From the IMG/VR virus record IMGVR_UViG_2663762841_000005: a stretch of DNA of 15,620 nucleotides; one strand, 5' to 3'. Origin of the DNA: a virus (lineage: Duplodnaviria > Heunggongvirae > Uroviricota > Caudoviricetes). The notes under the pieces are model-generated. The model was not told where the DNA came from. It saw nothing but the letters and a program-made list of their open reading frames with translations, and ran no database searches. The position numbers were made by a program, and so were the translations under genes. Every line of letters begins with the position of its first letter. Positions within the stretch are counted from its first letter, which is position 1. Below, one piece after another: positions 3,297 through 15,593 of this stretch.

Positions 3297-3848
3297 ATGC
3301 ATGACAATATTTGGTTTACATATAAAGCACGTATCCAAGCGCACCATCGACTAGAATGGCTTGAAAAACACTCTCAATTTATCCTCGTTTGGTATGCTAT
3401 ATTGAGTGCGGTACTTTCAATTGTAACGTTGCGATTTCCAAAGGTTCTAGGAGATAATACAGATGTCGTTGCGGCGATACTTTCAGTGGCTCTACTGGGT
3501 ATTTCTCTGATCGTATCTAACCTAGATTTTCGTGGTCGAGCAATAGCCATGAGAAGGAATTATATTGCACTACAGCGACTCTATTTTGACATTACCACCA
3601 GTCAACAGTTATCTCTTGAACAGAAAGAAAAATATTTTAATTTGCTCAATGAGGTTGAGAATCACCGTGACATAGATGATAAAATTTCAAGGGTAACTCA
3701 AGTTGGACTTAAGACGAGGATCCCCACACAAAAAGAAAAAATAATTGTTATTTTATGGATATTACTTCGAATATTTATTACTGCCGCACTTTATATACTC
3801 CCATTAATATATCTTTGGATTGACTATGACTGCAAGCAGAATTTTTAA
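3297..3848 (+). CDS. Small multi-TM membrane protein (2 N-terminal TM helices plus a C-terminal hydrophobic segment); candidate effector of the RT module, possibly SLATT-like
   Basis: 183-aa ORF, AT-rich, SD AAGGA 7 nt before the ATG. Hydrophobic stretches FILVWYAILSAVLSIVTL, VVAAILSVALLGISLIVSNL and IIVILWILLRIFITAALYILPLIYLWI. Its 3' end overlaps the RT start by 29 nt, suggesting translational coupling. The SLATT assignment is a guess from architecture. Confidence 0.65.
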   Translation: MHDNIWFTYKARIQAHHRLEWLEKHSQFILVWYAILSAVLSIVTLRFPKVLGDNTDVVAAILSVALLGISLIVSNLDFRGRAIAMRRNYIALQRLYFDITTSQQLSLEQKEKYFNLLNEVENHRDIDDKISRVTQVGLKTRIPTQKEKIIVILWILLRIFITAALYILPLIYLWIDYDCKQNF

Positions 3849-5196
3849 AAAGTCATTCTCGAAAAAAAATCTTCTAAAAGTATACTCTGAAAAAATCAAA
3901 GAATCAGGAGCGATTGGCATAGATCGGATTCGCCCATCAAAACTTGATTTGACAATAAAAAATGAGATCACTTTCATTTTTGAAAAGGTTAATTCTGGCA
4001 ATTACAAATTTACAGCATATAAAGAAAAATTAATATCTAAAGGCGCTAACTCTACACCCAGACAGATTTCCATACCAACTGCTAGGGACAGAATTACTCT
4101 TAGAGCTCTCTGTGAATGCCTTACGGAAATATATCCTAAGTCCAGATTAAAACTACCACATACAGTAATTGACTCATTGAAAGAAGCATTAAACAACAGT
4201 CTATATGCTGAATATGCAAAAATAGATCTTAAAAGTTTCTATCCTTCAATTGAACATAAATTGATAATTAATGCAATAAAAAATAAAATTAGAAAAAAAG
4301 AAATTAGACAGTTAATAACATCATCATTAATCGTGCCTACTGTAAGTGGAACCACAGGAAGCAAAGGTATCCCTAATAATACCAGAGGAGTACCTCAGGG
4401 ATTAGCGATATCAAACATTTTAGCTGAAATATCACTATCTAATTTCGATGATGAAATCAATAAAATGCATGACATATGGTACATGCGATACGTTGATGAC
4501 ATTCTTATTTTAACACCAAAATATCAAGCAACAAAAATAGCTTCTCATATCATTGATAAGCTTCAATCATTAAATTTAAACCCACATCCATTAAATGAAG
4601 AGAACTCAAAATCCAAAGTAGGCAGTTTGGATGAAAGTTTTAACTTTTTGGGATACCACATAGAAAATCGAGAATTATTGATAAAACATGAGAGCATTCT
4701 TAGATTTGAGTCATCCTTAGCAAAAATTTTTACTGCATATAGGCACGCTCTACTACAAGCTAAAAGTAAGCGTGATAAAGAACGAGCTGTTGCATATTGT
4801 CAGTGGAAACTAAATCTCAGAATTACGGGATGTGTGTTTGAAGGTAAACGATTGGGATGGGTATCGTACTTCTCACAAATAACCTCAACAGCTCAACTTC
4901 GCTCTGTTAATCATACTATCAATAATCTTATCCGCCGATTCGGCCTTTCATCAGAAATAAAACCAAAATCTTTGATTAAAACTTTCTATGAACTCCGCAG
5001 AGGTAGAGCGGAGACTTTTAAATACATACCTAACTTTGACAATCTACATATATCTCAGAAACGAGAACTTGTTTCTATGTGGATAGGTAAAGAGAAGGAA
5101 AAAAAACTTAGCAATAGTGAAATAGAGAGGAAGTTTAAATTTAAAATTGCGAAATCAGTAAAAGAGCTTGAAGAGGATATTTCAGGAATATCATAG
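3820..5196 (+). CDS. Reverse transcriptase (prokaryotic retron/Abi/UG-type, defence-associated candidate)
   Basis: 458-aa ORF with canonical RT motifs: motif A IDLKSFYPSI (Asp about residue 136), motif B' GVPQGLAISNILAEISL (about 190-206), motif C YVDD (residues 224-227, nt 4489-4500), motif E-like FLGY, plus a C-terminal extension of roughly 170 aa. A possible retron-like NN..A and ITG (region-7 VTG-like) are present, but the spacing differs from Ec86, so the family call is tentative. Confidence 0.9.
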   Translation: MTMTASRIFKKSFSKKNLLKVYSEKIKESGAIGIDRIRPSKLDLTIKNEITFIFEKVNSGNYKFTAYKEKLISKGANSTPRQISIPTARDRITLRALCECLTEIYPKSRLKLPHTVIDSLKEALNNSLYAEYAKIDLKSFYPSIEHKLIINAIKNKIRKKEIRQLITSSLIVPTVSGTTGSKGIPNNTRGVPQGLAISNILAEISLSNFDDEINKMHDIWYMRYVDDILILTPKYQATKIASHIIDKLQSLNLNPHPLNEENSKSKVGSLDESFNFLGYHIENRELLIKHESILRFESSLAKIFTAYRHALLQAKSKRDKERAVAYCQWKLNLRITGCVFEGKRLGWVSYFSQITSTAQLRSVNHTINNLIRRFGLSSEIKPKSLIKTFYELRRGRAETFKYIPNFDNLHISQKRELVSMWIGKEKEKKLSNSEIERKFKFKIAKSVKELEEDISGIS

Positions 5197-5949: not shown

Positions 5950-7002
5950 TTATTTCCCCACCAGCTCGTTTATCTCTTTCACTGTCTGGTTAAACCGCTC
6001 TGACTCAAGCTCAACACCTAAGGCCCGACGCCCCAGCGCCATTGCTGCTTTTATTGTGGAACCGGATCCCATAAAAAAATCAGCAACCAGATCACCAGGT
6101 CGACTACTGGCATTGATTATTTGCCTGAGCATATCCGCCGGTTTCTCACACGGATGTTTACCCGGGTAGAACTGAACGGGTTTATGCATCCAGACATCGG
6201 TATAAGGCACGGAGACTGATACGGAGAAATAGCGCCGGAGAGATTTAAACTCATCCAGCAATTCAGAATATTTGCGATTCAGTGAATCATAAGATGCCAC
6301 CAGCTGGTGGTGTGGTTGTTCCAGTTGTTGTTCCTGAAACTTCTCTGCCGCTATACGGGAAAACAGTGCCTGTAACTTCCGATAGTCAGCCTCATTCGGC
6401 AACTGCCACTGACTGGCACCAAACCAGTGGGAAACCATATTTTTCTTACCTGTGGCTTCGGCAATTTGTTTTGCCGTTATACCCAGTTCGGCACGAGCAT
6501 CCCTGAAATACGATATCAGCGGTGCCATTATGTGCTGTTTGAGTTCCCTTTCTTTTGCCGCATAGCCGTCACTTTTGCCGCGATATGGCCCCTGGTAATG
6601 TTCAGCAAACAGAACGCGCTCTGTGGCAGGAAAATATGCGCGCAGACTTTCTTTATTACACCCATTCCAACGTCCGGACGGCTTCGCCCAGATGATATGG
6701 TTAAGCACGTTGAAACGTTCACGCATCATGATCTCAATATCAGATGCCAGGCGATGCCCACAGAACAGGTAAAGGCTTCCGGCAGGTTTTAACACCCGCC
6801 AGAACTGGGCCAGACAGTGGTCCAGCCACTTAAGGTAATCTTCGTCCCCTTTCCACTGATTGTCCCAGCCGTTGGGTTTCACCTTGAAGTACGGCGGATC
6901 GGTAACAATCAGGTCAATGGAATCATCAGGCAGGGACTGAATAAAATGCAGGCAATCAGCGTTGATTAAATCAACACTGTTTATTTTTACAGTATTTTTC
7001 AT
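5950..7002 (-). CDS. DNA methyltransferase (N6-adenine/N4-cytosine family, DPPY motif), orphan
   Basis: 350-aa ORF with motif IV TDPPYF near the N-terminus and a C-terminal AdoMet-binding region (DFFMGSGST). No adjacent restriction endonuclease gene is visible. Confidence 0.85.
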
Positions 7003-7151
7003 GGATCAGTAAGCGTAACTCTGGTAGGCTCACTCTGCTTTTGCGCTAAAGCAGTGGGCCGTGGTTCGCTTGTGACCAGTAAGCATGAGCGAATGGCTGG
7101 CAGGTGCTACCAACACCCACCAGCCGCCCATTTTCACAAATTAAAAGTCCT

Positions 7152-7370
7152 TCATTGCTGAAGGCGTCTGTAACAGCCGAACTGGTAATCTGCCAGCCCC
7201 GCCATAACCAACTGGGTCAGTATTAACTGACAGCGTTCGCGTGAAAGATATGTGTTTTGTGCAATCTCCCCGACTGTTGCCGGTTCGATGCTTAATTCAT
7301 TAAAAACAACTTTCGCCGTTTCTGTCATATCTTGCTGTTTTAGCATGTCTTTTTTCCTTCTGGTTAACAT
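7152..7370 (-). CDS. Hypothetical small protein (72 aa)
   Basis: ORF only; basic N-terminus, possible helix-turn-helix-like segment (ATVGEIAQNTYLSRERCQLIL). No confident family assignment. Confidence 0.4.
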   Translation of the reverse strand: MLTRRKKDMLKQQDMTETAKVVFNELSIEPATVGEIAQNTYLSRERCQLILTQLVMAGLADYQFGCYRRLQQ

Positions 7371-7467
7371 GACATACCAATAACTCTTGTCTAAAAAGCC
7401 AGCAAGATAAAAAGTCAGTATTCACGACCACCAGCGTGTTTACCGTACTGCACCAGGTTTACAGGTA

Positions 7468-7494
7468 CAAAAAAACCCGCTCTACGGCGGGTTT
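7468..7494 (-). terminator. Rho-independent terminator on the minus strand (AAACCCGC / GCGGGTTT stem, 6-nt loop, U7 tract)
   Basis: On the minus strand the 8-bp stem (plus-strand 7473-7480 / 7487-7494) is followed by a run of seven T; possibly the lambdoid tR'-type terminator downstream of a late promoter remnant. Confidence 0.6.
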
Positions 7495-7592
7495 AAGCTG
7501 TGTGGCGAAGTAACCACTCTTAACAGATTATGATAGTTTTTGCGTACGCGTTAGTAATTTATTATGCTCTTTACAATTGTTAGCTTAACCGC

Positions 7593-8759
7593 ATGGAATT
7601 GACCAAAAAAATGAGCAAAGCAAGCATACGCCACGTAATCGTTCATGAGCTCTTAAAAGAATCTAATAAAGACTTCGATCACTCCAAACCATACAATCTT
7701 CGTGATACAGAACTAGATAAAACAAATGATATAGTAAAAAAATTAGTAGACGGTGTTATTGATTTGTATGGTTCAAAAGGGAACTCAGCGCATTATGGTG
7801 TTTTTATTAAAAATAAAACAAAGCAAGGCCCTATACCAGAACTATTTCATAAATACTCTTTAGTTCAACAATCTGTTTCAAGTGATTTCATTGAATTATC
7901 GAAGGAAGTTATGAAACAAATGTATAAATCTGCTCAAGAGCAGATTTGGGCTTCTGGAGGATATGTTGTTTTTACTGATTATATTTTATCTGGTTTCCGT
8001 TATCTATTGGTTACAATGATCAAAAAAACTAATGGCGTAACTATTAGTGAAAATTTAGAGCCAGAGGAAATGATTCACTTAGAACTTGGTAATATTAACC
8101 AAGCAGCAAAAATAAATTTCAGATATTATGAAGAATACCAAAAAGCAGATGACTTAAAAAAAACAGACTTAAGTTATCTAAGCTTTATAAGCAAAACTAC
8201 GGGACAGTCAGCGGCAGCATATTTTATAGCAGCATTAGGATGTGACAAGGGGATTGCTTCAGCAGGTGCAACCCGTAAGTTACCAGATGAAATAAGGCGT
8301 TTCTTTAAGAAAGAACCTCTTTTAAAAAATCAAGCAGAGTCATTTAGAAATGATGTTATCAAATACTTAGAAAAGCAATTTGACAACGAGCACTCTGCAA
8401 GGCTTTCTGATATCGAATCGCTTGCTTCAGGCCATATGTCCTATTTAAAAGAGGAAGAAAAAACAGAACTTGTTGATAAATTAATGAAACACCTCAATAG
8501 TGAGGAAGTCAGAATCCCATCAGAGTTCGTAATCAATAAAAACTCCTTAGATAAAATCAGCAATGTGATATATAAAACCCCATCATTGAGCTTTCACTTC
8601 GACAAGGATTTACTCGGTGTCACAACTGATGCTAAAATATATTATGATGACGAAAACCAAAGCCTAACATTTAATAATTTGCCTGTTGAAGCATTAACTA
8701 AGATAAGAAGAGCGTTGAAAGAAACTGATAACCCAAGTAATGAAGAAGATAAAGAATGA
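7593..8759 (+). CDS. Nucleoid-associated protein NdpA/YejK-family homologue (divergent, AT-rich)
   Basis: 388-aa ORF with YejK-like blocks: IRHVIVHELLK near the N-terminus, GGYVVFTDYILSGFRYLLVTMIKKTNGVTISENLEPEEMIHLELGNINQAAKIN, and YLSFISKTTGQSAAAYFIAALGCDKG. The probable true start is the ATG at 7611 (MSKASIRHV...), which aligns with the YejK N-terminus; 7593 is the longest ORF. Its stop overlaps the start of the next gene (ATGA). Confidence 0.75.
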   Translation: MELTKKMSKASIRHVIVHELLKESNKDFDHSKPYNLRDTELDKTNDIVKKLVDGVIDLYGSKGNSAHYGVFIKNKTKQGPIPELFHKYSLVQQSVSSDFIELSKEVMKQMYKSAQEQIWASGGYVVFTDYILSGFRYLLVTMIKKTNGVTISENLEPEEMIHLELGNINQAAKINFRYYEEYQKADDLKKTDLSYLSFISKTTGQSAAAYFIAALGCDKGIASAGATRKLPDEIRRFFKKEPLLKNQAESFRNDVIKYLEKQFDNEHSARLSDIESLASGHMSYLKEEEKTELVDKLMKHLNSEEVRIPSEFVINKNSLDKISNVIYKTPSLSFHFDKDLLGVTTDAKIYYDDENQSLTFNNLPVEALTKIRRALKETDNPSNEEDKE

Positions 8760-9982
8760 ATGATTTTAGTATAATAGTTAATCTGTATAGATTATCAAGC
8801 TATCCTCATTTTGACGGGGCTAAGTTTTCTGCGCGTATAGCTTATAATGCAGACGTAAAATCATTGTTCAAAAGAATTTTGAACCCTACTTTTCAAGCTG
8901 GTACAGCTGACGAAATAGAGGTGGATGGTCATTTAATTTATGATTATGAAGACTTTCCTGAAAAGGGAAATTTTCTTACATACTCGTTTAAAATTTCACA
9001 AGGAAGTGCGAATCGTTTTTATAAAAATAAAAACGAGTTTGTAAAAATAAACACGCTCAAGAAAGGCATAATGCCAGAGTATTTCTATATTATAGAGGAT
9101 GATTTCTATTCATTAGAAACACCAAAACCTTCTTATATCCAAAAAATTGAGGACATTTGTGAGCTAATCAATGCTCTTTCCATGCTTGCTCATTTCCATG
9201 ATATAAAAAAAGATAGCAAAGGTACATTTTATCGTTTAGTCTTTATTTTAAACTCAGAGTCTAAATCTTCTTCTGCTGTAATTGAAACAAATATTACAGA
9301 AGAAATTTTTAATGATAAAACAGTAAATACTCAGTTAGTTAAAACATTAGTAAGTAGTGAAGCTACTACTGATGCCCATCACATTGAAAAGATTAACACT
9401 TTCAGAAACACAGTTATTGAGTATGTTAATAAAAATGGAAATTCCTTTGTCGAGTTAATTAACAAGTGGGATTTCATATGCGAACTTTATACGAACAACT
9501 TAGCTGCTTATATGTCGGCATTTTCTTTTCATAAAGCAAGGAAAGAAGTTGTTGATGCTGAACTCGATTACTCAGAAAAACTGTCAAAAATAATTTCAGA
9601 AATTTCTAACAAAGCTCTTGCAATACCTATTTCACTAGCTGGTTCAATTGCTATTTTCAAATTAACAACAAAAGCTGATTGGATTATTGCTTTAATTGGA
9701 TTGATTATCACAGCAATAATAACATCTGCAATGATTGTGTCACAAAAAAAACAACTTGCTCGTATTTCACACTCTAAAGAAATACTTTTTGGACAATTAA
9801 GATATAGAATAAAGGATGACACCAGCGATCTTAAAGAGAGCTTAGAAGAGGCTATTAAAAAATTAAATGACAATGAGGATTTTTGTCATAAGGTGCTTGA
9901 CAGTTTATTATCACTAGCATGGATGCCTACATTCATAGGCATCATCGGTATTTTATTTAAATTAATGCCAAATATTACTTGA
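8756..9982 (+). CDS. Hypothetical protein with soluble N-terminal domain and three C-terminal TM helices; candidate membrane effector partner of the NdpA-like protein
   Basis: 408-aa ORF, AT-rich, translationally coupled to the upstream gene (4-bp overlap). Predicted TM segments at about residues 287-302, 309-327 and 383-403 (nt about 9614-9964). No recognisable catalytic motifs. Its 3' end overlaps the 3' end of the convergent Q gene by 8 bp. Confidence 0.7.
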   Translation: MNDFSIIVNLYRLSSYPHFDGAKFSARIAYNADVKSLFKRILNPTFQAGTADEIEVDGHLIYDYEDFPEKGNFLTYSFKISQGSANRFYKNKNEFVKINTLKKGIMPEYFYIIEDDFYSLETPKPSYIQKIEDICELINALSMLAHFHDIKKDSKGTFYRLVFILNSESKSSSAVIETNITEEIFNDKTVNTQLVKTLVSSEATTDAHHIEKINTFRNTVIEYVNKNGNSFVELINKWDFICELYTNNLAAYMSAFSFHKARKEVVDAELDYSEKLSKIISEISNKALAIPISLAGSIAIFKLTTKADWIIALIGLIITAIITSAMIVSQKKQLARISHSKEILFGQLRYRIKDDTSDLKESLEEAIKKLNDNEDFCHKVLDSLLSLAWMPTFIGIIGILFKLMPNIT

Positions 9983-10334
9983 GCATGTACATAACCCCAT
10001 TAATGAAACCTAACGCAGTCTGCAATTGCTTCCGGATTGTTCCATCTGAGCATCTGCGTCTCTTCGCAATAGAACGCAGTGAAATACCTATAACGAAGTG
10101 AGCAATGATCAGCTCATATTCGTCTGGTTTATACTTACACAGGCGGGCAACACAGCCGTCTATCATGATGCCTTCATCATCATCACACTGAAGGCGTATT
10201 TTTTTACCATGAGGTAAAAGCCCCTTAAAGCCTGCTGCTATCGGCTGCCAGTCCACACCACTGTTATCTGCTGCAGCCCACGCTCCCCAGCGGTCTAAAA
10301 CTTCATACATATCACGCATCAACTTTCTCCACAA
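9975..10334 (-). CDS. Lambdoid antitermination protein Q (phage 82/21-type, QuuD-like)
   Basis: 119-aa product with LDRWGAWAA, IAAGFKGL, QCDDDEGIMIDGCVARL and CSDGTIRKQL blocks, matching the small Q-family antiterminators as I recall them. Confidence 0.8.
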   Translation of the reverse strand: MWRKLMRDMYEVLDRWGAWAAADNSGVDWQPIAAGFKGLLPHGKKIRLQCDDDEGIMIDGCVARLCKYKPDEYELIIAHFVIGISLRSIAKRRRCSDGTIRKQLQTALGFINGVMYMLK

Positions 10335-10336
10335 AA

Positions 10337-11332
10337 TCAGGCCAGCACGCCAATTGCCAGCGCACGATCGATAAAACGAAATATCAGCTCCAGCTGGGAG
10401 CCATACTTCTCTTCAAATGCCACGGTATCCGCATGCAGCTCGTCGTGATGCTTTCTGCACAAAGGCAACACAAAAAGGTCATGCGCTTTTGTTCCCATTC
10501 CACCCTGACCGTGACCTATCAGGTGGTGGGGATCATCAGCGGGCTTTCCACAACATGCACACGGCTGTGTCTTAACCCAGCGCGTGTACTTTTCATTAAC
10601 CCAGCGGCGACGTTTGGGGCGTAACATAAAAGACTCCGGCGACTCCGGATCCACTTTCAGCGCCAGCACCTTTTTCGCCTTATCCTGGATGATGCTGGTG
10701 GCAGGAACCGAAGGCACAAGGTCACTTTCCCGGGTAACAGACGGCACAACAGGCTTCGGTAATCTCAGTGCCTTACGGGCTGCACTTTCCGGTAAGGCAT
10801 CCGCCAGATCATTACGAATCAGCCACCAGCACAGTTCCGGCATTGTCACAACGTGACTGTCATCAAAACCGAGATCCCGACGCACAACAGACAACACCCA
10901 GCGGGCACAGTTATCCGTTGCCATTGATTCCAGCCGTTCCGTGAACTGATCGCGCAGCTGGTTATCGCAGTGCCAGCACAGACGGATTGCACCCGGAGCG
11001 TGTCGCATTGTGGTCATGTTCTCGCTGTGCCAGTCGGAATGAGGCCACTGGCAGCCTTTTTCACGAAGTAACCAGCTTTCAAGACATTCCACGCCACCAG
11101 CACGACGGATCACTGCCTCATTGCGGAACACGGCCCGAACGGCAGGATCATCCGCCAGCGGTTGTGATGCCGCCGGAACGGCACCACTGGCGAAAGATGA
11201 ATAACGCTCCGGCTCAGGCTCCAGCAGGACACGCCCCTGCATAAACAGGGGCATCAACTCTGAACCTGGCCTGAACAATACGATCCCCATACGCGGGGCA
11301 ATTTCAGGGGTCAGTAGTGCTCTCACGGTCAC
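10337..11332 (-). CDS. Phage protein, DUF968-like with C-terminal HNH/zinc-finger-like motif
   Basis: 331-aa ORF; the C-terminal CACCGKPADDPHHLIGHGQGG...CRKHHDELH cluster resembles HNH-type metal-binding motifs; position in the nin-like region upstream of Q. Confidence 0.65.
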   Translation of the reverse strand: MTVRALLTPEIAPRMGIVLFRPGSELMPLFMQGRVLLEPEPERYSSFASGAVPAASQPLADDPAVRAVFRNEAVIRRAGGVECLESWLLREKGCQWPHSDWHSENMTTMRHAPGAIRLCWHCDNQLRDQFTERLESMATDNCARWVLSVVRRDLGFDDSHVVTMPELCWWLIRNDLADALPESAARKALRLPKPVVPSVTRESDLVPSVPATSIIQDKAKKVLALKVDPESPESFMLRPKRRRWVNEKYTRWVKTQPCACCGKPADDPHHLIGHGQGGMGTKAHDLFVLPLCRKHHDELHADTVAFEEKYGSQLELIFRFIDRALAIGVLA

Positions 11333-15055: not shown

Positions 15056-15593
15056 GACGATGCCCTCCGCTGATATTCAGGAGACGGTGAATATGAAAAT
15101 TAGCCTTATCCGCCAGACGAATACGTTCAGCCTGCAAGTTAAGAAGGGTTTCTACCAGAACTTGATGCGCCTGCGGATCCGAAAGAGTTACCTTGCGCAG
15201 AGCACGTAGTGCAGTTGTTACATAACTGAGTTTATGTAAGTCTTCATCATTCAGACGAGTGAGGGCTGGGACAGTAGCCATGATGGCAGCCTCCGATAAC
15301 AGTGAATTACCTTCACCACCGGAAACGCCAATTTCGCTGGTGGTGAACTGAACGGGGTTGGCGTAACCGGCGTTATCGGAAACCGGCGCACCTTTCGGTG
15401 CCCCCGTCCAGCCCACCATAATTTGGGTGTGCACAGACGCAGACGATAAAAAAGACGCTGGCGCGTCATATATCGCCGATAACATTTCCAGGACGCCAAT
15501 CCCGGCACCCGCTTTATAAGGTGCCTGAACAGTGTAACGTCCCGGAATGGCAGAATCAATGTGCTGGTGGTCCTTCACACTCAACAAAATCAC
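15048..15593 (-). CDS. Hypothetical phage protein (181 aa); start may lie nearer the window edge
   Basis: Longest ORF in the region; overlaps the next gene by 8 bp. No family recognised; an alternative-frame ORF (15251..15559) is judged spurious. Confidence 0.4.
   Translation of the reverse strand: MILLSVKDHQHIDSAIPGRYTVQAPYKAGAGIGVLEMLSAIYDAPASFLSSASVHTQIMVGWTGAPKGAPVSDNAGYANPVQFTTSEIGVSGGEGNSLLSEAAIMATVPALTRLNDEDLHKLSYVTTALRALRKVTLSDPQAHQVLVETLLNLQAERIRLADKANFHIHRLLNISGGHRHA

Follow-up and report, generated by a model that had tools for sequence, protein, structure and literature searches.

A Q21-family antiterminator gene and its probable late control block flank a convergent two-gene cargo in a defective lambdoid Escherichia coli prophage

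Introduction

Late transcription in phage lambda starts constitutively at a promoter whose DNA includes a site for the antiterminator Q, and it stops after a short leader. The lambda promoter lies immediately downstream of Q, the leader (6S RNA) is 194 nt long and the Q protein belongs to the family PF03589. Phage 21 encodes a Q of an unrelated family, PF06530, which has been equated with the Q21 family (Yin et al. 2022, PMC9388147). Its PR' region (annotated in OL657228; Yin, Kaelber and Ebright 2019) comprises a -35 element, a Q site, a -10 element, a start, a short leader of about 46 nt and a terminator ahead of the late genes. The promoter starts 7 nt after Q, the Q-binding element (QBE) consists of two directly repeated 8-bp subsites (ATTGAGCA and AATGAGCA), and a pause element, TAAGCT, is found at +2 to +8.

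The Stx phages H-19B, 933W, phi24B and Sakai also carry a PF06530 Q, together with a dyad (TTTACGATCGTAAA) that overlaps the Q stop codon, and they have no cargo between the two. In Sakai Sp5, dRNA-seq has placed the PR' start 258 nt before the 3' end of tR', Term-seq has mapped the transcript and PR' has been described as constitutively active (Sy et al. 2020, PMC7547250). The StxS RNA of the Stx phages ends at a second terminator, 258 nt downstream, and the first hairpin of Sakai is evidently read through to reach it.

The architecture described here is also that of quuD-nmpC-essD in the K-12 prophage DLP12, in which a PF06530 Q, a convergent porin cargo (IS5-interrupted in K-12), a late control block and the lysis genes follow one another. 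In phage PA-2, lc adjoins the same block. We analysed a 15,620-nt stretch of virus DNA (IMG/VR record IMGVR_UViG_2663762841_000005, hereafter the window), for which an initial annotation had suggested that Q was decoupled from its late operon by an insertion and that a remnant of the late promoter and terminator lay on the far side.

Results

Q gene and convergent cargo

The window represents a defective lambdoid E. coli prophage. Its Q gene lies on the minus strand at 9975-10334 (RefSeq start 10319, MRDMYEV), and a profile search matched the ORF to Pfam Phage_antitermQ, PF06530, with E = 5e-44 and 149 bits (cutoff 26). The same model is also matched by Q21, H-19B Q, phi24B Q and QuuD, and the window Q is a Q21-family antiterminator by membership, with predicted antitermination activity. 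An assignment of H-19B Q to the phage-82 type was rejected on the same PF06530 match. The Q21 family is characterised by a sigma-R4-like fold with a DNA-binding helix-turn[loop]-helix. The window Q matches the Q21 structures 6jnx and 6p18 only weakly in sequence (E = 0.0036, residues 13-91), and in the alignment the window protein, which has 119 aa, lacks the loop that is inserted in Q21. Its recognition helix, KRRRCSDGTIRKQLQ, places it in what we call specificity class A.

Downstream of Q lie two plus-strand genes. Cargo gene 1 (7593-8759, RefSeq start 7611) encodes an NA37/NdpA-like nucleoid-associated protein (Pfam E = 5e-50). The product of cargo gene 2 (8756-9982) is 408 aa long, carries membrane helices at its C terminus and matched no Pfam family; neither gene had a match in PADLOC or in the phage collection. 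Gene 2 converges on the 3' end of Q and overlaps it by 8 bp (9975-9982), as the initial annotation had noted. The cargo as a whole (7593-9982) has a GC content of 30%, and GC values are 0.29-0.37 over 7600-9800 versus 0.47-0.57 in the flanks. A weak candidate cargo promoter, TTGCGT-17-TATGCT, was read by eye on the plus strand at 7540-7568, and the terminator scan found no site between cargo and Q. No break point of the left recombination junction was visible on aligning Q 3' ends, because the Q genes are ~75-80% identical at the DNA level throughout.

Elements of the late control block

Beyond the cargo, comparison with related loci delimits a minus-strand block of ~86 nt at 7554-7469 with the predicted organisation PR'-QBE-tR'. 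The distance from the Q stop codon to the conserved GTTAAGAG of this block is 2450 nt, a gap taken up by the 2.4-kb convergent cargo. A generic promoter scan found nothing on the minus strand at 7500-7592, and the promoter elements are placeable only through related loci. The initial annotation had likewise been unable to place the promoter hexamers; the blank scan agrees with it, but the comparison does yield a candidate -10.

The candidate -10 hexamer, TAATCT (7525-7530, minus), occupies a conserved position that reads TAnnnT in every variant among the related loci, or CAGTAT in one class, and the TATCAT annotated as the -10 of a putative late promoter in phage phi24B falls at the same place. 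The -35 sequence of class A is poor (TAACGC or CTAACG). The transcription start mapped in Sakai can be transferred by homology: counted back 258 nt from the tR' 3' end, it falls on A708 of phi24B (708 + 257 = 965, where the second annotated terminator ends), which predicts a start at an A at 7518 in the window. The candidate Q-binding element TAACGCGTACGCAAAA (7538-7553, minus) contains the dyad core GCGTACGC at 7549-7542, overlaps the -35 region and is centred 21.5 nt upstream of GTTAAGAG. The class-A Q site occurs once in the whole window.

The predicted minimum-free-energy fold of the leader contains a hairpin, GUGGU-UACUUC-GCCAC (7502-7517, minus). Across 41 diverse sequences, 86% of the cells of this hairpin are paired, and the changes hit one side of a pair only. 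It is followed by a tR'-like intrinsic terminator (7469-7494, minus) with the stem AAACCCGC/GCGGGTTT (8 pairs, 5 of them G-C), the loop CGTAGA and a run of seven T. The strong minus-strand terminator reported earlier is borne out: it is the best-scoring site of the terminator scan, which found 11 sites versus 4.4 +/- 2.0 expected. The terminator ends a leader of ~50 nt and is kept in relatives; the predicted folding energy of the 63-nt leader is -19.8 kcal/mol (z = -2.4). No Rfam family was found at the block and no tRNAs were found by a tRNA scan.

The layout resembles that of phage 21 in that the Q site lies just upstream of the -10, the leader is ~50 nt and a terminator precedes the late genes, although the window site is a dyad, not a direct repeat, and the 2.4-kb cargo separates it from Q. 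The phage 21 pause element has no clear counterpart: no sigma-dependent pause element is recognisable in the leader, and no TAnnnT is conserved downstream of the predicted start across genera. The -10-like TACATT in the leader of 933W and H-19B reads TACTTC in the window, and this position is not -10-like across genera. An alternative placement, with TATCAT at 7535-7530 (block positions 20-25) as the -10 and TAAGAGT as a phage-21-like pause, was rejected, as the hexamer is not -10-like in many genera.

In H-19B, phi24B/933W and Sakai Sp5/Sp15, the region directly after Q is homologous to the block, starting at the final base of the -10 and ending with the first hairpin and its T-run, and the dyad of these phages is of the same design at the same distance. 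The window differs in having no second terminator, no tRNA and no stx genes. The DLP12 block differs from that of the window by one mismatch in a 23-mer, GTTAAGAGTGGTTACTTCGCCAC, and its dyad, TTTACGTACGTAAA, belongs to another Q specificity class.

Dyads co-vary with Q recognition helices

Among the related loci, the class of the dyad agrees with the class of the Q recognition helix: in 54 of 54 distinct pairs of class A, 16+3 of class B, 16 of 17 of class C and 4 of 4 of class D, with one exception in ~95 distinct Q/dyad pairs. The match persists despite differing intervening cargo, and it also persists in Stx1_499, in which the DUF968 gene found upstream of Q in most relatives is missing. 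These correspondences suggest that GCGTACGC is a candidate operator specific for class-A Q, to which Q would bind.

Separation of Q and block in relatives

The order Q, block and late (lysis) genes on one strand is found in the window and in more than 150 related loci. In IMG/VR loci with the block, the PF06530 Q upstream of it is on the same strand, either 27-38 nt or 525-3780 nt away. E. coli SCU-116 has no cargo, and its copy of the block starts 38 nt after the Q stop codon. An independent retrieval through Q, not through the block, gave 80 loci from species-representative genomes, and ~55 of them have the block downstream of Q. It adjoins Q in Xenorhabdus, Rouxiella, Pantoea and Chania, and is 0.6-3.6 kb away in Escherichia/Shigella, Enterobacter, Citrobacter, Yersinia, Serratia and others. 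The initial annotation had proposed, as a test that could refute it, to look for the Q-distal layout in intact relatives; the close relatives do share it with the window. The textbook adjacency of Q and block is confined to other Q classes and more distant genera.

All 76 loci with a class-A Q carry at least 400 nt of cargo between Q and the block. In ~108 loci, the slot holds ~30 different cassettes or architectures with 50 protein clusters, and ~90% of the cassette ORFs are convergent with Q. The contents include KwaB of Kiwa (E = 2e-150) and candidate defence matches to PDC-S20 (KAP NTPase), PDC-M53/PDC-M53A, PDC-S42, NsnA/PD-T4-2-like and HEC-04-like proteins. The NA37-like and membrane-protein pair of the window recurs among the slot cassettes. 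With this many occupants, besides nmpC of DLP12 and lc of PA-2, the site is not the unusual moron location that had been supposed.

The viable phages mEp460, SfII, Stx1_499 and Stx2a_1447 have the order Q, convergent cargo, block and late genes. Given this order in viable phages, among them several Stx1/Stx2 phages, and a Q that would act in trans on a DNA site, the idea of a decoupled Q does not hold. Nor is the block a remnant: it is intact, its conservation is about that seen in viable phages, and several genomes carry it with 100% identity.

A search of the available literature found no description of this Q-PR' slot. The Q-stx "pR' region" is discussed by Zhang et al. 2018, whose section 3.1 describes no cargo between Q and pR'.

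Late genes downstream

The first gene past the terminator is a 72-aa ORF (7152-7370, minus) with weak winged-helix similarity and a position kept in relatives. It is followed on the same strand by an N6/N4 DNA methyltransferase gene of the late transcription unit (5950-7002; ORF and profile match), a P21-type holin gene (5945-5667; profile match) and a 138-aa lysozyme ORF (5667-5251) whose Pfam match stops at position 80 of the 125-position profile. The late operon ends at this truncated lysozyme, with no virion genes after it.

Discussion

Together, our results suggest, with a probability of roughly 0.85, that the block at 7554-7469 is the cognate late control cassette of Q, parted from it by a 2.4-kb two-gene convergent cargo. 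The homology of the block to those of related loci, its position, the co-variation of dyad and Q and the diversity of the cargo are direct observations, and the first three agree with the earlier proposal that the segment beyond the cargo is the PR'-tR' unit. The claim that the cargo sits exactly between Q and its target also stands, as it spans the interval from the Q stop codon to the PR' unit. The separated layout is normal for this Q class, including in K-12 and in viable phages; the description of the window as separated is correct but ordinary.

We then propose a model based on the lambda and phage 21 paradigm. PR' would fire constitutively, and its transcripts would stop at the terminator at 7494-7469. 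Once made, Q would bind the dyad in trans and load onto RNA polymerase early in elongation, and the modified polymerase would read through into the 72-aa ORF, the methylase gene and the lysis genes. As Q locates its target by way of a DNA site, the 2.4-kb gap would cost nothing. The interval between the Q stop codon and PR' would hold no essential signal and may for this reason have become a preferred slot for imported genes. Cargo nearly always opposes Q, an orientation in which its expression in the lysogen would not run into the lysis genes. We infer both the Q loading step and the efficiency of the terminator; the latter is in doubt because the homologous hairpin of Sakai is evidently read through.

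One alternative, which we consider unlikely, is that the block promoter is used by RpoE (sigma-E) together with Q. DLP12 has the same block upstream of essD, and the weak class-A -35 is compatible with the involvement of another sigma factor or of an activator. RpoE is reported to act together with Q at the DLP12 essD promoter (Rueggeberg et al. 2013 and 2015, Microbiology). A paper that cites these studies ascribes control of the operon to both the phage Q-type antiterminator and RpoE (PMC7918800). However, no clear GGAACTT-16-TCAAA was read by eye in the block, the invariant TAnnnT is a sigma-70 signature and the Sakai PR' is described as constitutively active.

A slightly less probable alternative takes the TAnnnT at 7530-7525 as a sigma-dependent pause element and moves the promoter upstream, with CAAAAA at 7542-7537 as the -10, a -35 near 7566-7561, a start near 7530, a leader of ~62 nt and the Q site between -35 and -10, as in phage 21. 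The 11-12 bp from Q site to TAnnnT would equal the QBE-pause distance of phage 21, and in some relatives the required -35 reads TTTACA or CTTACA. A palindrome pairing the discriminator GNTAAG with CTTAN also shows some covariation: 83.8% of cells are paired versus 32-42% in slid controls, with two isolated double changes (GTTAGG/CCTAA and GTTATG/CATAG). Only a start further upstream would lead one to expect such covariation, which implies that 7524-7519 is transcribed and counts against a start at 7518. We did not adopt this RNA helix; the signal is real but moderate, and it conflicts with the mapped start. The Sakai dRNA-seq start fits 7 nt after TAnnnT, and TTTACG-16-TATCAT in 933W/H-19B makes a good sigma-70 promoter. 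Moreover, CAAAAA lacks the T at -7, and the required -35 falls inside the Q coding sequence, is not promoter-like in H-19B/933W and reads CATAAT in the window.

That Q is an orphan, with 7494-7469 serving only to shield the late genes from transcription that arrives from upstream or from the cargo and no working Q-dependent promoter left, is very improbable: the prophage is defective, with a truncated endolysin and no virion genes, and the generic promoter scan is blank at 7500-7592, but the block is conserved as in viable phages, retains its class-matched dyad, TAnnnT and leader, and shows no sign of cassette decay.

For the window itself, the cognate-cassette reading has little consequence. 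The layout is standard for the Q class and the prophage is defective; with its late operon cut off after the truncated endolysin, the switch would be vestigial and control almost nothing. The comparison is of wider use, as it locates the late promoter and the probable Q-binding site of Q proteins that are very common in E. coli prophages, and it shows that kilobases of inserted DNA between Q and its target are tolerated. It also reveals a well-bounded slot for exchangeable accessory genes of prophages, most of them defence-like. The Q gene and the 23-mer suffice as conserved anchors to collect the cassettes of this slot, some of them uncharacterised, such as the NA37-like and membrane-protein pair of the window.

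It is tempting to speculate further, although we hold this at somewhat below even odds, that the short enterobacterial PF06530 Q proteins recognise dyad operators, not direct repeats of the Q21 kind, and that the gap between Q and operator is a dedicated exchange slot for convergent cargo. Four or more specificity classes of such operators may exist, all placed at one fixed position that overlaps the PR' -35. Since no canonical sigma-dependent pause is visible in most lineages, Q may load while sigma still holds the promoter -10. Dozens of defence cassettes may likewise be exchanged between Q and operator. If so, Q and the PR' block would form a practical anchor pair for mining new defence systems, among them the NA37-like and membrane-protein pair. 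The P2/P4 hot spots (Rousset et al. 2022, as cited in PMC11364771) similarly offer many alternative AT-rich cassettes in a fixed slot flanked by conserved phage genes; unlike them, the slot in the window is bounded by a regulator gene and the DNA target of that regulator.

Organization of the prophage and its late control unit

The ORF and composition tables reveal a lambdoid prophage in the window, reading leftward on the minus strand. RusA, KilA-N and DUF968 genes (12540-10337, in minus-strand gene order) precede the antiterminator gene Q (10334-9975, -; Pfam PF06530, E = 5e-44). Beyond Q lie two plus-strand cargo genes (7593-9982), an island of 29-37% GC, followed on the minus strand by a 72-aa ORF (7370-7152) and the genes for a DNA methyltransferase (7002-5950), a P21-type holin (5945-5667) and a lysozyme (5667-5251); the lysozyme ORF has only 138 aa, covering positions 3-80 of 125 of the Pfam profile. 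The first cargo gene matches Pfam NA37 (the NdpA-like nucleoid-associated protein family), and the second has no Pfam match. The window contains no virion genes, and neither spanin nor terminase genes were found past the lysozyme ORF; thus, the prophage is defective. E. coli AR434 is 100% identical to window positions 7000-10400, and its prophage, which has portal and tail fragments, shows a deletion pattern unlike that of the window, which therefore derives from a different carrier strain.

Every element named in the initial annotation was found where it had been placed, including the 8-bp overlap of cargo and Q (9975-9982) and the minus-strand hairpin AAACCCGC/GCGGGTTT with its T-run (7494-7469). 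This hairpin is the best terminator-like site of the region and dominates the predicted leader fold (-19.8 kcal/mol, z = -2.4). The annotation had also proposed that a late-control unit of Q lies beyond the cargo, which is borne out by cargo-free relatives, a phage alignment, a block search and a Q search. In E. coli SCU-116, which has no cargo, GTTAAGAGTGGTTACTTCGCCACACAGCTTAAACCCGCCG..CGGGTTTTTTT, the same sequence as window 7524-7469, stands 38 nt past the Q stop codon. Alignment of the window, SCU-116, E. coli E4, mEp460, Stx1_499, SfII and Stx2a_1447 demonstrates a common block that begins with CTAACGCG (window 7554) and includes the terminator, while the DNA to its left is unrelated. The 23-mer GTTAAGAGTGGTTACTTCGCCAC is present in at least 120 IMG/VR contigs, and wherever these hold enough upstream DNA, a same-strand PF06530 Q always lies upstream, at 27-38 nt or else at 525-3780 nt. 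To guard against circularity, a second retrieval was made via the Q protein, giving 80 loci from species-representative genomes, and with a block profile about 55 of the 80 proved to have the block downstream of Q. In Xenorhabdus, Rouxiella, Pantoea, Chania and Acerihabitans the block directly adjoins Q; in Escherichia/Shigella, Enterobacter, Citrobacter, Raoultella, Yersinia, Serratia, Proteus and others it stands 0.6-3.6 kb from Q. The annotation was right to suspect here a late control cassette that cargo has displaced.

Predicted promoter and start site

Every variant has TAnnnT as the hexamer immediately preceding GTTAAGAG, apart from one class with CAGTAT, and the interior of the hexamer is free to vary (TATCGT, TAACCT, TACTGT, TAGTGT and others); the window has TAATCT (7530-7525, -). 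From the last base of this hexamer on, the block aligns with the post-Q region of H-19B, phi24B/933W and Sakai Sp5, where Q likewise belongs to PF06530 and a TTTACGATCGTAAA dyad overlaps the Q stop codon. In Sy et al. 2020 (PMC7547250), the primary PR' start was mapped by dRNA-seq in both Sakai Stx phages, and the Sakai tR' 3' end was mapped by Term-seq 258 nt downstream of it. The phi24B record annotates a putative late promoter as TTTACG-16-TATCAT; A708 lies 7 nt past TATCAT, and A708 + 257 nt gives 965, where the second annotated terminator ends. Since A708, matching the start mapped in Sakai, aligns with window 7518, our best model for the window is a predicted -10 at 7530-7525, a start near 7518 and a leader of ~50 nt ending at ~7469. 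In its general layout the unit resembles the richly annotated PR' of phage 21, which has the same Q family and comprises a -35, QBE, -10, start, pause element and terminator end near +46.

Several points do not fit. The class A -35 is poor. The Q paradigm requires a sigma-dependent pause element, and none could be named in the leader, because the -10-like TACATT of the 933W and H-19B leaders is TACTTC in the window and is not conserved across genera. The 7494-7469 hairpin is a putative terminator whose efficiency cannot be read from Sakai, where the homologous first hairpin precedes a second terminator and the latter defines the RNA end. Hairpins with T-runs homologous to the window's terminator are found in phi24B (locus L210, 734-756) and Sakai Sp5 (locus L213, ~770-795). 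This first Stx-phage hairpin spans roughly +27 to +49 of the PR' transcript, the published tR' being the second terminator at +258, and the consulted passages of Sy et al. 2020 (PMC7547250) do not mention the first hairpin.

A palindrome is formed on the minus strand by the discriminator GNTAAG (7519-7524) and CTTAN just before the terminator (~7491-7497). Its arms pair in 83.8% of cells versus 32-42% in slid controls, with 5.0 pairs observed versus 4.55 +/- 0.11 in a partner-swap null, and with two isolated double substitutions. The covariation includes GATAAG/CTTATC, GTTAGG/CCTAA and GTTATG/CATAGC (the window and related loci L130-L202). If transcription starts at 7518, the 5' arm falls outside the PR' transcript, which leaves the pairing signal unexplained; the pairing may matter for read-through transcripts from Q. 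Use of the DLP12 version of the block promoter by RpoE, reportedly seen in DLP12 studies, would be a minor alternative that does not exclude its role as the late promoter of Q.

The dyad follows the recognition helix of Q

Directly upstream of the conserved leader is a dyad whose centre lies 21.5 nt ahead of GTTAAGAG and whose sequence varies with the Q recognition helix. The helix KKRKCSDGTIRKELQ (class A) goes with the dyad GCGTACGC, RKKDEKLIRIEIQ (class B) with GCGGTCCGC, RKHGRSDCWVGRLLQ and relatives (class C) with TTTAC-N4-GTAAA, and GISLNQVVIRLQ (class D) with TGTTATAACA. Counted over all loci as distinct pairs of Q tail and upstream sequence, and inflated by sequence relatedness, Q and dyad agree in 54/54 class A pairs, 16 class B pairs plus 3 near-variants, 16 class C pairs with one exception and 4/4 class D pairs; no other cross-class pair was found over all loci. 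The exception is a Providencia alcalifaciens locus (L197) with a class-C-like Q and TAGTGCGCTACGCAAAA 3.6 kb downstream, a block that may belong to another Q. The match persists across differing cargos and is also found in Stx1_499, where the DUF968 gene that most relatives have upstream of Q is missing. The pattern implicates Q as the dyad's binding partner, with support that is strong but indirect given the relatedness of the sequences. Within the window the class-A 16-mer has a single occurrence, at 7553-7538.

A cargo slot between Q and the block

The initial annotation had regarded Q as decoupled from its late operon and the insertion as an unusual moron site. Neither description holds, since Q would work in trans via a DNA site and the same layout is found in viable phages, DLP12 and PA-2. 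Convergent genes separate Q from the block in viable mEp460, SfII and several Stx1/Stx2 phages. In E. coli K-12 DLP12 the order is quuD, convergent nmpC, a block with one mismatch and then essD, and in phage PA-2 the block adjoins the lc porin gene. Textbook genomes already contain this type of layout, of which the window is one more member, and the site is not a rare one.

Among ~108 loci, about 30 cargo architectures are built from 50 protein clusters, and 142 of the 158 cargo ORFs (~90%) lie opposite to the Q strand. All 76 class A loci carry cargo of 400 nt or more; the block is adjacent in 15 of 40 class B and 12 of 32 class C loci, the other 25 and 20 having cargo, and all 12 class D loci have one same-strand ORF. 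These class D loci (L011, L018, L022 and nine more) share a 792-nt gap with one 214-aa ORF on the Q strand, which has no Pfam or PADLOC match; they are the chief departure from the convergent rule.

Among representative cargo proteins there are matches to known or candidate defence families: KwaB of Kiwa (E = 2e-150), PDC-S20 (KAP NTPase), PDC-M53A, PDC-S42, and NsnA/PD-T4-2-like and HEC-04-like proteins. The window's own cargo has no match in PADLOC or in the phage collection. It was identified in 29 of 5426 complete E. coli genomes, the same 29 that carry the whole Q-to-methylase stretch, so its context is always that of the window. Two more, divergent pairs of an NA37-like and a membrane protein occupy the slot (L025/L055/L107 and L052/L059, IMG/VR loci), the partner being a ~400-aa protein with membrane helices at its end. 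These pairs suggest a family of two-gene systems absent from PADLOC 2.0.

We propose how the slot may be tolerated. Q would act in trans via a DNA site, so its gene's distance would be irrelevant; from the Q stop codon to the upstream edge of PR' there would be no required signal, and the stretch would lie outside the late transcription unit. Genes in the slot, pointing away from the lysis genes, could be expressed in the lysogen with no danger of triggering lysis. No terminator was found between cargo and Q in the window, and one may speculate that cargo transcription therefore runs antisense into Q, as lambda paQ does. A literature search with partial access found no description of Q sites as dyads divided into classes, or of systematic defence-like cargo in the slot; because of this partial access, we consider the novelty of both only moderately probable.

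The sole plausible cargo promoter, read by eye, is TTGCGT-17-TATGCT (7540-7568, +), with its -35 inside the Q dyad; that Q binding to the dyad could alter cargo expression is purely speculative. At the prophage end, a SLATT and reverse-transcriptase pair (3297-5196, +) separates the truncated lysis genes from the dinI-like and integrase genes; it is a predicted DRT-type defence pair whose reverse transcriptase matches PADLOC RT_UG17 (E = 1e-158) and also RTasSLATT. In the early region, adjoining an ash/ant-like ORF, 15336-15524 (-) matches the Rfam C4 antisense RNA (82.8 bits) and the isrK Hfq-binding RNA (63.7 bits), both above the gathering score.
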